DNA of 64,000 nucleotides from a virus: the IMG/VR virus record IMGVR_UViG_3300012232_000011, positions 17,196 to 81,195 of that record; one strand, given 5' to 3'. How positions within the stretch are numbered: position 1 is the first letter of the stretch; each line of letters starts with the position of its first letter. Both the position numbers and the translations under genes were made by a program. Positions 18,047 through 62,113 of the stretch are shown one piece after another. Under the pieces are notes generated by a model, which worked only from the letters and a program-made list of their open reading frames with translations, ran no database searches and was not told where the DNA came from.

Positions 18047-18058
18047 GGCTTGTTCCTT

Positions 18059-18103
18059 CCTTCCTTCAGTTACAAATGTAACATCCGGCGGGGCGACTGT
18101 CAA
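18059..18103 (-). promoter_or_regulatory. conserved promoter-operator-RBS unit, copy A
   Basis: TTGACA-17-TACATT, palindrome GTTAC-N4-GTAAC at 18069-18082, then ACTGAAGGAAGG. Confidence 0.85.
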
Positions 18104-18107
18104 CCCC

Positions 18108-18136
18108 TTGCGCCGTCAAGTTTCGCAGGATAGTCT
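18108..18136 (+). promoter_or_regulatory. divergent sigma70-like promoter candidate
   Basis: TTGCGC-17-TAGTCT, upstream of 18205..18504. Confidence 0.35.
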
Positions 18137-23341: not shown

Positions 23342-23350
23342 GGTTTGTGT

Positions 23351-23398
23351 CTCCCTTCCTTCAGTTACAAATGTAACATAGCGGGCGGAGGAAGTCAA
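23351..23398 (-). promoter_or_regulatory. conserved promoter-operator-RBS unit, copy B
   Basis: TTGACT-17-TACATT, palindrome at 23364-23377, then ACTGAAGGAAGGGAG. Confidence 0.85.
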
Positions 23399-23436
23399 GA
23401 GGTATCTTGACGCCCGGAAGCGACCCGGCGAACGTG

Positions 23437-23615: not shown

Positions 23616-23711
23616 GGAATTGGCATAACGCCGCGCCACAACCGCGATCCGTGTGATATCGTTTGACCGCGTCGCCGCGGGAGCCTGGACCGCGTCGGGC
23701 TTCTATTCACC

Positions 23712-51885: not shown

Positions 51886-53697
51886 ATGAAGACCGCAAGG
51901 ATGCGTCTCGCGTTGATTCCCCTGTTCGCGCTCGCGCTCGCGCTCGCGTGTGGCGCAGGATTCCAGCTCGGCAACTCCGGAGGCGCGACAGGCGTCGCCG
52001 GAGTGCCCGGTGTCGATTGTGTTGCCTTCGGCGGGGACCTGGCACCGCTCGATCCCGTGACGGGTGCGCCCATCGGGGACTGTGTCCTGCAATCGGCGGA
52101 TCAGGGTGCGCTCGGCGTCTGTATGATCCGCTACGGGCCGCAACTCCCAACGCCCGGCGGGCCTCCGATGGATTGCCGCCCAAACACACAGACACCGACG
52201 CCCACGGTCACAAACACACCGACGGCGACCGTCACACCGCCGCCAACCGCAACCTTCACACCGACCAGCACGCCTACGGCCACCCGGACGGCGACGCCCT
52301 CGAACACGCCGGGCACGGGCGTCACCTTCGCTGTCACGGGCAACCCGCCGAGCGCGTTCACGCTCGAAGCCTTCACGACGATCTCGGGCGATGTCCGCCT
52401 CGAGTTCCGCGTCGACGGAGGCGCGTCGCCGTGGCCCGTTGAAAACGTCGCGCCCTATTCCCTCTGCGGCGATGAGTACAACGCGCAAGGTGTTCGGGTT
52501 CTCAATACCTGCACGCTCGCCGCCGGCTCGCACACGATCACCGCGAATGTCTACGCCCAAAGCGGCTCGGTGATCCTTCAGTCCGGCTCCATCGTGATTG
52601 GTGGCCCGGCGCCCACGCCGACGAACACACCCGTACCAACAGCGACCAACACGGCGGGACCTTCGCCGACACCGACGAACACGCCGACGCCCGGCGCGGG
52701 TCGCGATAAGTTTCTCTGGCCCTTCGATTCCGTGTCGCCCTGGAACATGCCGATCGGAAGCGGTGCGATCCTCGCGCCCTCGAACTTCGGGACGCCGGCG
52801 TGCTATGAGCCGTCGTGTCGATACTTCACGGAGGCGGAGTACATCTTCCTTACGCCGACGGCGCCGCTCGTGAATATCGGCGGCGGAGGCGGCTGTACCG
52901 GGTCGGGCAGCGGACAGGTGCGCCTCCCGAACGGCGTCACCTTCGGCGGTCCAGGCGGATCTAACGACACGGGCGGCGCACTCCGCACGAACACCGACCG
53001 CGTTCAGGAGTGGTACAACGGGTGCCGCAGCACCGCGTCGAATTGCGCTGTCGCGAATTGCAGCATGGGTGTGGCGAACGTGCTGTGTGAACACTCGATC
53101 AGCGGGTACGGCGTCTCGACACCGTCGATCTTCTGTTACGGCGGACACGGCGGCTCCGGACTGTCCGCCGTCGGCGGAAGCATCCGCGTGTGGGAGCTGG
53201 CGGCGGGTACGCCGCTGCGTCACGCGCTGAAGTTGACGATGCCTGCGAACCGCTTGAACAACGACGGCGACTCGCCCGAATGTAACGATGGTTACCGCTG
53301 GCCCGCGATCATCGCCGACGGCGGGTGGGACTCGCCCGGCGGCGCGTCGGAGTACAGCGGGGTGGTTAAGTCGCTCTGCATGGGCGCGTTGCTCGCGCTC
53401 CCGCAATCGACCAACTGCACCGCCCTAGTTCCGAACGAGCTGAGTCGGCGCGTCTGTGCCGCGCTCCGGGACTATGGAGCCTACGTCGTCGATATTCATC
53501 CTCTCGATATGGATTGTCCGGCGACGTGCTGGCAACCGTTCACCCTGAACGGCGAAGCCGCAGTCGAGGGCTTTCTGATCGACAACGATATGATCGCGCT
53601 GATCTCCGCGCTGCAAGTCGTAACGAACAACGGGCCTGCGTCCGTTGGCGGCGGCGGGACGCCGTTGGTACCATTGGCTCCGCCTATCAGTAATTGA
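51886..53697 (+). CDS. secreted/lipoprotein: PT linker + Ig-like domain + PT linker + domain shared with the tail tip N-terminus
   Basis: Signal peptide ending LALACG; TPT repeats; FRVDG..E..APY..HTITA (Ig-like); C-terminal domain from 52705. Confidence 0.8.
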   Translation: MKTARMRLALIPLFALALALACGAGFQLGNSGGATGVAGVPGVDCVAFGGDLAPLDPVTGAPIGDCVLQSADQGALGVCMIRYGPQLPTPGGPPMDCRPNTQTPTPTVTNTPTATVTPPPTATFTPTSTPTATRTATPSNTPGTGVTFAVTGNPPSAFTLEAFTTISGDVRLEFRVDGGASPWPVENVAPYSLCGDEYNAQGVRVLNTCTLAAGSHTITANVYAQSGSVILQSGSIVIGGPAPTPTNTPVPTATNTAGPSPTPTNTPTPGAGRDKFLWPFDSVSPWNMPIGSGAILAPSNFGTPACYEPSCRYFTEAEYIFLTPTAPLVNIGGGGGCTGSGSGQVRLPNGVTFGGPGGSNDTGGALRTNTDRVQEWYNGCRSTASNCAVANCSMGVANVLCEHSISGYGVSTPSIFCYGGHGGSGLSAVGGSIRVWELAAGTPLRHALKLTMPANRLNNDGDSPECNDGYRWPAIIADGGWDSPGGASEYSGVVKSLCMGALLALPQSTNCTALVPNELSRRVCAALRDYGAYVVDIHPLDMDCPATCWQPFTLNGEAAVEGFLIDNDMIALISALQVVTNNGPASVGGGGTPLVPLAPPISN

Positions 53698-54155
53698 GCA
53701 AGGGGGACCCATTGAAAGCCGCCGCCCTGATCTCCGCAGCGATCTTCGTCGCAGTTGGATTCCTTGCCGCCGTGCAGTTTGCTCCGGAAGTAAACGCGCA
53801 CGGCGGCGGGTGTTCGTACCAGTGCAAAACGCCGACGAAACCCGCGAAGACGCCGACGAAGCCGGCGTACACGAAGACCGCCAGCGCGACCGCGACACGG
53901 ACAGCAACATGGACACCGACCGCAACCCTCACTTCGACGCCGACACCGGAACCGAGCGACACACCCACGAACACGTTCACACCGACGGCAAGCAACACGC
54001 CCACGGACACGCCCACGCCGACCTTCACACCTTCCTCAACGATTACGCCGTCGCCGCCCACGAACACGCCCATCCCGACACAAACGCCGGGCGAGGGACT
54101 CACGCCGCCGTTGACGATCAACCCGCCGGACACCGGGAGCAGTGGTTCTAAGTAG
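53694..54155 (+). CDS. secreted Pro/Thr-rich (mucin-like) protein
   Basis: Signal peptide, TP repeats, ends INPPDTGSSGSK. Confidence 0.75.
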   Translation: MSKGDPLKAAALISAAIFVAVGFLAAVQFAPEVNAHGGGCSYQCKTPTKPAKTPTKPAYTKTASATATRTATWTPTATLTSTPTPEPSDTPTNTFTPTASNTPTDTPTPTFTPSSTITPSPPTNTPIPTQTPGEGLTPPLTINPPDTGSSGSK

Positions 54156-57811: not shown

Positions 57812-57860
57812 TCTCCCTTCCTTCAGTTACAAAGGTAACATCCGCCGCTGCGTCCGTCAA
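57812..57860 (-). promoter_or_regulatory. conserved promoter-operator-RBS unit, copy C
   Basis: TTGACG-17-TACCTT, palindrome at 57826-57839, then ACTGAAGGAAGGGAG. Confidence 0.85.
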
Positions 57861-58062
57861 CCCCTGCGGCGGCAATTTGACAGGAAAAGCAGGGCGATTT
57901 ATCGACGCCGACGCGGCGCGGAGCCAACGGAAAAAGCCGGGGACAAGTCACCCGGCTTCATCCTGAAGGATGGAGAAAACAAACCGATCCCGGGCTTACG
58001 CGCCGGGCGCGGGTGTTTCAACCGATCCGATGATAAGGCACGGATAAACCCTCCGGCAAGGG

Positions 58063-58110
58063 TTGACAGTCAAGCGGGGCGATGTTACATTCTTAACTGA
58101 AGGAAGGGAG
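58063..58110 (+). promoter_or_regulatory. conserved promoter-operator-RBS unit, copy D
   Basis: TTGACA-17-TACATT, GTTAC-ATTC-TTAAC at 58084-58097, then GAAGGAAGGGAG. Confidence 0.85.
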
Positions 58111-60644: not shown

Positions 60645-61336
60645 ATTGTTGCCCGACTCCGCTGGCCGTCGACGGCTGTTGCGCTTCATGCGGCGCCGGA
60701 ACCCGCGATGTTCAACCGCGCCGGGGCGGACGCCGCCGGACACCCGTCGCAACACCGCCGCCAGCTCCGGCGCCGCAAGTGCGCCCCGCGCTCGCGAACC
60801 TCGAACTTATCCAACTCGAACCCGCCGACCTGAAATACATCGGGCGCGTCGCCGGCGCGAGGTTGTCGGCGAAGATGCCGGGAACGAACAAACTCGACAG
60901 CGTGACGCGGACGCACTCCGAGGCGCAACTTCACCGGATGGGCGTCACCGTGAAGTACGCGTTCTCGAAAGCCTTCGGCCTCGAGTTCGACACGTCGGTC
61001 GGAGTCCGCGGAGATAGCGGGTACGACACGACGCTGCCCGACGGTCGCACCGTGCGGATCAAATCGAGGGACCGCGTCGAAGCCGACCTCATTGCGACGG
61101 CGACGGAGATCGTCGCCGACCTCGTTGTGCTGGCGATCATCATCACGCCCGACGTCGTCCGGCTCGCCGGCTTCATCGAACGTGAGGCGTTCTACGCCGC
61201 CGCCTGGCGAAAGGACTTCGGCCACGGCGAGCGGTTGATCGTGCGACAGAAGAAGTTACGCCCGATGTTGGAGCTAATGCGACCGCCCACGAAGGAGGTT
61301 GTCGCGCCGGCGGACAAACAAGGGAGGCTGATATGA
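60641..61336 (+). CDS. PD-(D/E)XK-like nuclease-fold protein with apparently degenerate active site
   Basis: G..VKYAFSKAFG..GDSGYDT..GRTVRIKS..ADLVVLA..VRLAGFI pattern. Confidence 0.5.
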   Translation: MNCCPTPLAVDGCCASCGAGTRDVQPRRGGRRRTPVATPPPAPAPQVRPALANLELIQLEPADLKYIGRVAGARLSAKMPGTNKLDSVTRTHSEAQLHRMGVTVKYAFSKAFGLEFDTSVGVRGDSGYDTTLPDGRTVRIKSRDRVEADLIATATEIVADLVVLAIIITPDVVRLAGFIEREAFYAAAWRKDFGHGERLIVRQKKLRPMLELMRPPTKEVVAPADKQGRLI

Positions 61337-61383
61337 ACAACGAAGCGCACTCGGACGGGCGGAGTCCCGTCACGATCTGGTGA
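61333..61383 (+). CDS. 16-codon coupling mini-ORF
   Basis: GGAGG RBS; ATGA and GTGA overlaps with both neighbours. Confidence 0.35.
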   Translation: MNNEAHSDGRSPVTIW

Positions 61384-62087
61384 TACTTCGGCGCACCGCC
61401 GCGCTACTACTGATCGCGGCGTTGCTTGTTTGGTTTGGGAGCCTGGACCATGATCGATTCAATCCTTCATCTCGGAGCGTTAGCCATGATGTGTCTGATC
61501 ATGCTCGCGTTGACGATCAAGTTCTGGATCGCGTTCAGTACGACGGACGCGACACCGCCGGATGGGACGCCGGAGAAGGAACCCTCGCGGGACTCTGGCT
61601 CTTGGGAGCGCACTTCGGACGGTCGCTGGCAATGGACGACGCCTACGCCCGAGCAGTCGGCGACCCGACCGTCGTCGCTCGATCATCGGGAGATCCCGTC
61701 GTTCGTTCGCCTTCAGCCGTCCCTTCGCCGCCCGTGGCAGGAACAGGTGGCGGAGCTGTTGGAGTTGGAGGAACAGCGAGCGGGGCGACCCTTATAGCGG
61801 GAAGCGCGACGCATTACGGGCTGGCGTATCAGGGAAAGGGCATGGCCTGCGGTGGCATCTATGACACGGCGAACCCGTTGATCGTTGCGGTTGGCCCGGC
61901 GTACTACTCCGCGTGGCCCTGCGGCACTCCGCTCCGCGTCTGTGGCGCAGGCGGTTGCGTCGACGCCTTCCGATCCGATTCATGCCCGGGTTGCGGCCCG
62001 TACCTGTTCGATATGAGCGAGAGCGGACTCGCCGCCGTGTGCGGCGCGGTTGTGAATTGCGCCGTCACCGTCGAAGTCTTACGATAG
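61380..62087 (+). CDS. secreted RlpA-like/double-psi beta-barrel (lytic transglycosylase- or expansin-like) protein
   Basis: Signal peptide; ATHYG..MACG..IVAV..CGTPLRVC..SDSCPGC..FDMSE motifs. Confidence 0.75.
   Translation: MILRRTAALLLIAALLVWFGSLDHDRFNPSSRSVSHDVSDHARVDDQVLDRVQYDGRDTAGWDAGEGTLAGLWLLGAHFGRSLAMDDAYARAVGDPTVVARSSGDPVVRSPSAVPSPPVAGTGGGAVGVGGTASGATLIAGSATHYGLAYQGKGMACGGIYDTANPLIVAVGPAYYSAWPCGTPLRVCGAGGCVDAFRSDSCPGCGPYLFDMSESGLAAVCGAVVNCAVTVEVLR
61450..61797 (+). CDS. overprinted single-TM protein nested in the RlpA-like gene (+1 frame)
   Basis: GGGAG RBS, N-terminal TM segment, high GC3 over 115 codons. Confidence 0.6.
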   Translation: MIDSILHLGALAMMCLIMLALTIKFWIAFSTTDATPPDGTPEKEPSRDSGSWERTSDGRWQWTTPTPEQSATRPSSLDHREIPSFVRLQPSLRRPWQEQVAELLELEEQRAGRPL

Positions 62088-62113
62088 GTGCAATTTGCCG
62101 GGAGCCTGGACCG

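Follow-up and report, generated by a model that had tools for sequence, protein, structure and literature searches.

Unrelated Small Genes Nested in the Linker of a Phage-Borne Double-Psi Barrel Gene Family, with Evidence for Coding in Two Frames

Introduction

Small genes placed in another frame of a larger gene are known from the overprinted genes of viruses and from comS, which is located inside srfAB, and they represent single, lineage-specific events. The embedded phage genes known so far are mostly such single events or one obligate pair. In lambda, Rz1 is a same-strand +1 gene lying over the flexible linker of Rz, a protein with an N-terminal membrane helix (PMC6139136). Rz1 is a fixed and obligate lipoprotein partner in the lysis cassette, and Rz ends in coiled coils. 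With respect to the way in which the outer gene of the present locus starts, the closest described system is translational coupling of the AUGA type, in which the upstream stop overlaps the downstream start (PMC5972666). As far as the protein is concerned, the single-domain relatives of the expansins (i.e., domain 1 of the bacterial expansins Clavibacter 4jcw and EXLX1, the loosenins, and the Streptomyces papain inhibitor) resemble the family described here in the double-psi barrel and in the conserved Thr and Asp, and the lytic transglycosylase RlpA has the same barrel fold. EXLX1 binds peptidoglycan, and its Asp82 is required for activity (PMC5072189). Many orders of Dehalococcoidia encode peptidoglycan synthesis (PMC10284905).

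The locus analysed here resembles Rz/Rz1 in that a +1 gene lies inside a flexible linker, and the choice of this pair as a precedent in the initial annotation was right in terms of architecture. However, the nested genes of this family (hereafter passengers) are unrelated, interchangeable, often found in tandem and often absent, and the outer protein of the phage ends in a glycan-type barrel. In contrast to the overprinted viral genes and comS, one site takes many unrelated genes throughout the family, and the linker of the outer gene appears by its codon use to be the derived frame. No published description of the nesting, the start, or the barrel of this family was found in literature searches.

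The reading favored here, with a probability of about 0.75, is that both frames are translated without forming a fixed pair. The helix and the barrel of the outer protein would be constrained, and swappable passengers would be held in the stop-free linker between them. The dozens of loci, which belong to at least 17 groups with unrelated passengers, provide natural replicates on the origin of overlaps (capture vs. de novo birth), and they also bear on the question of why one frame is always chosen.

The Locus and Its Two Reading Frames

The window, that is, the whole stretch of 64,000 nt that was analysed, is part of a circular virus genome of 81.4 kb with ~64% G+C. The locus (table 1) is part of a rightward cluster of early genes that follows a sigma-70-like promoter at 58063–58091. 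On its upstream side lie a Gp3-like recombination gene and an orphan of 231 aa, and on its downstream side a HerA-like ATPase gene, in agreement with the early-region position originally proposed. Direct IMG/VR searches with the nested ORF, the HerA-like gene, and the upstream gene gave no close relatives, and the barrel had no match among cultured phages. Cellular homologs of the barrel come almost all from genomes of Dehalococcoidia and other Chloroflexota, and because of this taxonomy the host of the virus is presumed to belong to the Chloroflexota, perhaps to the Dehalococcoidia. The likely cellular host is a monoderm (PMC10284905).

Table 1. Features of the Locus and Their Positions in the Window
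Feature	Positions	Strand	Remarks
Shine–Dalgarno sequence (GGGAGG) of the mini-ORF	61322..61327	+	From the sequence; 5 nt ahead of the mini-ORF ATG
Mini-ORF, 16 codons	61333..61383	+	Putative ribosome-delivery leader
Outer ORF, 235 aa	61380..62087	+	Helix, linker, double-psi barrel
Signal peptide or signal anchor, outer residues 2–22	61383..61445	+	Arg-Arg n-region; coded in the outer frame only
RBS of the nested gene, at the end of the outer helix	61437..61449	+	First copy of a 13-bp direct repeat
Outer linker, residues 23–139	61446..61796	+	−1 reading of the nested gene
Nested +1 ORF, 115 aa	61450..61797	+	One N-terminal hydrophobic helix, then a Pro/Thr/Ser-rich polar tail
Double-psi beta-barrel, Cys-rich	61797..62084	+	Expansin domain 1/loosenin-like; 8 Cys
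Codon of Asp211	62010..62012	+	Invariant in 56 aligned barrels
RBS of the HerA-like ATPase gene (ATG 62114)	62100..62112	+	Second copy of the 13-bp repeat

The nested ORF lies wholly within the outer frame, and both were recovered as the initial annotation had placed them. The nested ATG is preceded by GGGAG (61437–61441) with a spacer of 8 nt. The best 19-residue hydropathy window of its product has a value of 2.4 (residues 5–23). Over the overlap, GC3 is 0.76 in the nested frame, which is genome-like, against 0.53 in the outer frame; in the barrel, coded in the outer frame only, it is 0.76. The RBS, the membrane helix, and the better GC3 previously attributed to the nested ORF are therefore all present. 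No homolog of the nested protein was found among 5.8 billion proteins or in the Atlas, and this protein may be regarded as an independent small membrane protein. An outer-membrane lipoprotein of the Rz1 type was considered and rejected, as the single Cys15 lies within the helix, there is no lipobox, and the likely host is a monoderm.

Residues 2–22 of the outer protein are hydrophobic and helical. Single-sequence folding of the whole protein gave a pLDDT of 42 and is uninformative except for the helix. Its linker had been described as low-complexity, which applies only to residues ~105–137; the remainder is rich in Gly, Ala, Asp, and Val, as is typical for the −1 reading of a GC3-rich gene. 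Standard pipelines call the nested ORF and an 81-aa fragment of the barrel, and the 235-aa ORF is left uncalled. Gene callers are defeated by this family, and the databases hold either the passenger with a truncated barrel or the outer gene without its start.

Taken in the window alone, the open outer frame is compatible with chance. In ordinary genes of the same genome 28% of the 115-codon windows have an open −1 frame, and the probability of an open outer frame given the nested protein is 0.12–0.30. It is the homologs of the family that supply significance.

Distribution of Nested Frames in the Family

Loci were fetched by barrel-only patterns from viral, genome, and metagenome data, blind to the upstream content. 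In linkers of at least 40 residues, +1 ORFs were scored as nested when they were led by a Shine–Dalgarno sequence, covered at least 60% of the linker, and had a GC3 above that of the outer frame. A nested ORF was found in nine out of the nine long-linker viral loci vs. 2 out of the 20 from Chloroflexota genomes (Fisher P = 5e-6; the rows are related and this value is indicative only). Viral copies with linkers of up to 25 residues contain zero nested ORFs.

Of the two exceptions from genomes, one is a short contig that was binned with an archaeon, and the other is a chromosomal copy surrounded by housekeeping genes, with a passenger that looks decayed. The former (L041), an 8.7-kb contig binned as Bathyarchaeia, carries a phage-type copy and is probably a misbinned phage fragment. 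The latter (L027:5800–6417) groups with phage copies on the tree and retains its decayed passenger, and in L088 the open +1 frame has been lost. The pattern of these two loci suggests a return of the gene from phage to host.

The scoring script has certain limits. Locus L009 is missing from its table though the pattern is visible by eye, L004 and L057 were scored as plain despite their open +1 frames, and the nested calls of L150 and L027 are weak. Four contigs, which were fetched once the model was formed, fit it: three of phage context have the overlapping start and a passenger, and one of cellular type has the mini-ORF and no passenger.

Start of the Outer Gene

A +1 stop lies over the presumed start just before the helix in 85 of the 99 distinct loci; the chance of such an overlap in a stretch of this kind is ~20–25%. 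The overlap is mostly CTGA, with ATAA, ATAG, GTGA, and ATGA also encountered; accordingly, the presumed starts are mostly CTG or ATA, and GTG in the window. The upstream frame of the cellular copies consists of a mini-ORF of 7 codons, which is led by one Shine–Dalgarno sequence and contains a second, and CTGA is invariant in 26 out of the 26 aligned cellular leaders. Any ATG, GTG, or TTG ahead of the helix is absent in 71 of the 98 loci (~70%, slightly overcounted). In the window, the mini-ORF shares bases at its ATG with the stop of the 231-aa gene upstream (ATGA) and at its stop with the outer start (GTGA), which has no well-spaced Shine–Dalgarno sequence of its own.

The spacing of the start fits initiation, and there is no conserved slippery site. 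The simplest reading would be a restart at a weak codon after termination. The arrangement is like coupling of the AUGA type (PMC5972666), but in this native family of bacterial and phage genes the start under the overlap is conserved, mostly as CUG or AUA. The family points to routine CUG/AUA initiation behind a mini-ORF in the Chloroflexota and their phages.

In the cellular copies L019–L044 (alignment A3, columns 50–90), the codons of the signal peptide contain a hairpin of 13 pairs, 13 nt downstream of the CTG. In this hairpin 91% of the cells are paired, in comparison with 28–56% in slid controls, and four pairs have changed on both sides; no match was found in Rfam. It is a possible translational control element. 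A hairpin after the start codon is unsupported in the window's copy (z +0.2; z −1.3). On the minus strand of L043 (1247–1333), a match to the c-di-GMP-II-GAG riboswitch (46.6 bits) is located upstream of, but opposite to, the cellular copy.

Diversity and Origin of the Passengers

The nested ORFs form 29 unrelated clusters across the 17 locus groups. They comprise membrane peptides, coiled-coil proteins, and zinc-ribbon-like peptides; tandem pairs are frequent, and some passengers continue through the barrel. Many are zinc-ribbon-like, soluble, and Cys-rich and have no membrane segment, and a hydrophobic helix is present in 10 of the 19 representative first passengers. In L003, L013, L014, L016, and L017, insertions of 25–60 residues within the barrel are read as Cys-pair motifs in the +1 frame, and the passengers of these loci appear to extend into the loops of the barrel. 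Segments have been exchanged within one phage clade. On the barrel tree, the nested state requires 11 changes, of which at least six are forced by well-supported branches; the tree gives no direction as to gain or loss.

The position of the passengers is restricted. In 17 of the 19 representatives, the distance from the helix end to the first nested start is −8 to +22 nt. In passenger-free cellular copies, GGAGG is found at the end of the helix in 13 out of 18, vs. a background of 5% in barrels. The GGAGG at the end of the signal peptide in the cellular copies L019–L044 has no evident start codon behind it. In ordinary genes, the stop density is 0.012 per codon for the −1 reading vs. 0.025 per codon for the +1 reading. 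The repeated +1 nesting at one site could be explained by a ready RBS in combination with a stop-tolerant frame.

With somewhat better than even odds, the linker can be viewed as a reusable cargo bay, in which unrelated phage genes repeatedly enter, leave, and recombine behind the built-in RBS of a weakly started gene for an exported wall-binding protein, with their −1 reading as the stalk. In the favored reading of translation in both frames, the phage would hold a Dehalococcoidia-type gene for an exported or membrane-anchored barrel similar to expansin domain 1. The upstream mini-ORF would deliver ribosomes, which would restart at a weak codon over its stop (GTG in this copy and, in relatives, CTG or ATA for the most part), and this weak restart would lead to little outer protein being made. 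Constraint would be limited to the helix and the barrel, and the stalk would need only to stay free of stops. Small +1 phage genes that land or arise behind the Shine–Dalgarno-like sequence at the end of the helix would become expressed. Their −1 reading, the one in which GC3-rich genes are least likely to contain stops, would become the stalk, and passengers would be swapped between lineages. If the linker is indeed a reusable cargo bay, the family represents a many-replicate system for the formation of overlapping genes, in which the nesting is linked with a conserved CUG/AUA start below a mini-ORF.

The same dual coding could have arisen with passengers born de novo by overprinting an existing linker. 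This is considered rather unlikely, and it can coexist with capture. Most passengers are indeed orphans (20 passengers other than that of L165 gave no significant PHROG or Pfam match), and the latent Shine–Dalgarno sequence already exists in cellular copies, both of which speak for such a birth. However, young overprinted genes show atypical codon use (PMC3494269), whereas here the nested frame, and not the linker, has a genome-like GC3; by this criterion, the linker seems to be the derived frame. The linkers of passenger loci have also lost the Pro/Thr content which is seen in cellular copies. Moreover, relatives of the L165 passenger occur as free-standing genes in two other viruses (54% identity, E = 1e-17), where each is preceded by an RBS of its own, is closed in the −1 frame, and lacks a neighboring barrel. 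Codon use and this free-standing passenger favor capture over de novo birth; the direction is unproven.

The initial annotation had interpreted the outer and nested proteins as a two-component envelope module with a possible role in superinfection exclusion; the members of such a module would bind and act together like Rz and Rz1. Both proteins have a membrane segment, as do about half of the representative first passengers counted above, and the +1 nesting in the linker matches that of lambda (PMC6139136). Nevertheless, a fixed module is improbable and this part of the annotation is abandoned. The passengers of the 29 clusters are unrelated, many of them are soluble Cys-rich peptides, and no partner with a lipobox is present. 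Copies free of passengers are common, since there are none in short-linker viral copies and in nearly all cellular ones, and the locus lies among the early genes, at a distance from the lysis cassette. Neither superinfection exclusion nor binding between the two proteins gains support from the present results. A spanin identity was rejected as well, with a barrel instead of a coiled-coil periplasmic domain and with an early-region rather than a lysis-cassette position.

Evidence for Coding in Both Frames

No outer-frame stop was found between the helix and the barrel in any locus with a detectable helix. In the 17 groups, with one representative from each, zero stops were observed, whereas synonymous resampling gave 27 expected stops under ordinary codon usage or 36 when self-calibrated. 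About 21 stops are still expected after dropping L002 and L003, which were found through predicted proteins, and L027 and L150, which are weak. The helix region of the family loci is coded in the outer frame only. The assertion that the outer frame must stay open does not follow from the window alone, where the probability of an open frame is that given above, but it is borne out by the family. Similarly, the need of the outer protein for both its N-terminal helix and its barrel is supported as a family-level constraint.

The analysis of synonymous-site constraint, which had been suggested as a check, was run on family relatives, as no close relative of the window's passenger was found. Of the 169 overlap substitutions in close relatives, 65 leave the nested protein unchanged (26% under neutrality, P = 3e-4) and 33 leave the outer protein unchanged (29% expected). 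Since the silent excess is seen only in the nested frame, it is the passenger that is constrained in its amino acids, and not the linker. In the barrel, 245 out of the 312 substitutions are synonymous for the outer frame, which indicates strong purifying selection. All nine clean indels counted between closely related copies have lengths divisible by three. A motif of the outer-frame linker was seen in few homologs, with no clear extension to the window's copy. On comparison of these sequences, both frames most likely code, and dual coding is confirmed at the family level and likely for the copy in the window.

Slightly less probable than the fixed module is the case that the long outer frame is open by chance, given the scarcity of stops in −1 frames of GC3-rich genes, and that the real products are limited to the nested protein and a barrel-only one. 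The barrel would then start at an ATA over the nested stop (61794) or at ATG 61842. The chance of an open frame in the window is not small, as noted above, the gene callers picked exactly the nested ORF and a barrel fragment, and an ATAG overlap is present at the edge of the barrel. On the contrary, outer-frame stops are absent family-wide, and the helix, which exists in the outer frame only, bears the stop-over-start signature of the family. An 8-Cys barrel deprived of an export signal also seems implausible, and a start at 61842 would remove the first barrel strand with its invariant Thr and Tyr.

Finally, it is very improbable that the barrel protein really begins with the nested membrane ORF, from which an assembly error would have split the barrel or to which a −1 frameshift would join it. 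The helix and Pro/Thr-rich tail of this ORF resemble ordinary linkers of the family and it ends one codon into the barrel, but no slippery heptamer precedes the barrel in 24 loci, nested stops range from −40 to +131 codons relative to the barrel, the always-open outer frame and the soluble passengers would be left unexplained, and a second (ENA) assembly is identical over 6551 bases, though it was probably built from the same reads.

The Barrel Domain

The model of the aligned barrel is a confident double-psi beta-barrel (pLDDT 97), and its Cys residues form four probable disulfides. The nearest solved folds are expansin domain 1, kiwellin, the Streptomyces papain inhibitor, and a loosenin, the TM-score being ~0.8 for the expansin-related proteins, and the barrel profile matches the Clavibacter expansin with an E value of 1e-12. 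Asp211 aligns with Asp78 of the Clavibacter expansin, the residue altered in the D78N structure 4js7 and the counterpart of Asp82 in EXLX1. As regards membership in the double-psi barrel (DPBB_1) clan, both the fold and the conserved Asp are present.

The protein had initially been called RlpA-like. This holds at the level of the fold (Pfam DPBB_1, E = 0.02–0.11; PA4485 is among the structural matches), but the nearest solved relatives belong to expansin domain 1. Membership in RlpA itself was rejected: TIGR00413 weakly matches 1 of the 56 members, and the window's copy has no SPOR domain and no lipobox. A canonical bacterial expansin (EXLX) was also rejected, as domain 2 is missing and the score is 23.9 bits vs. 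the NF041144 cut-off of 100 bits. In comparison with bacterial expansins, the phage barrel is devoid of domain 2 and far under the NCBIfam cut-offs, has a long stalk and an N-terminal anchor, and is phage-borne.

The most likely role of the barrel, though at somewhat less than even odds, would be to bind or loosen a cell-wall glycan of a peptidoglycan-bearing Dehalococcoidia host. With this family, an expansin-like wall protein encoded by phages would be added for a group in which peptidoglycan was demonstrated only recently (PMC10284905).

Repeats and Other Elements

The 13 bases before the nested ATG and before the ATG of the HerA-like gene are identical, and they are possibly a trace of recombination. 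A third copy is located at 23679–23691 of the window, 33 nt before ATG 23712, a spacing which is not RBS-like.

An intergenic element of ~55 bp occurs in four copies, three of them at 57812–57865, 23350–23403, and 18055–18108 of the window and the fourth ~4050 bases before it. On the minus strand, the element consists of TTGAC, 17 nt, and a −10-like box inside a palindrome, followed by a strong Shine–Dalgarno sequence. These elements are likely to be repressor-controlled promoters.

A second secreted gene with a Pro/Thr linker is located at 53694–54155 of the window, and its start appears to overlap the upstream stop at a TTG.
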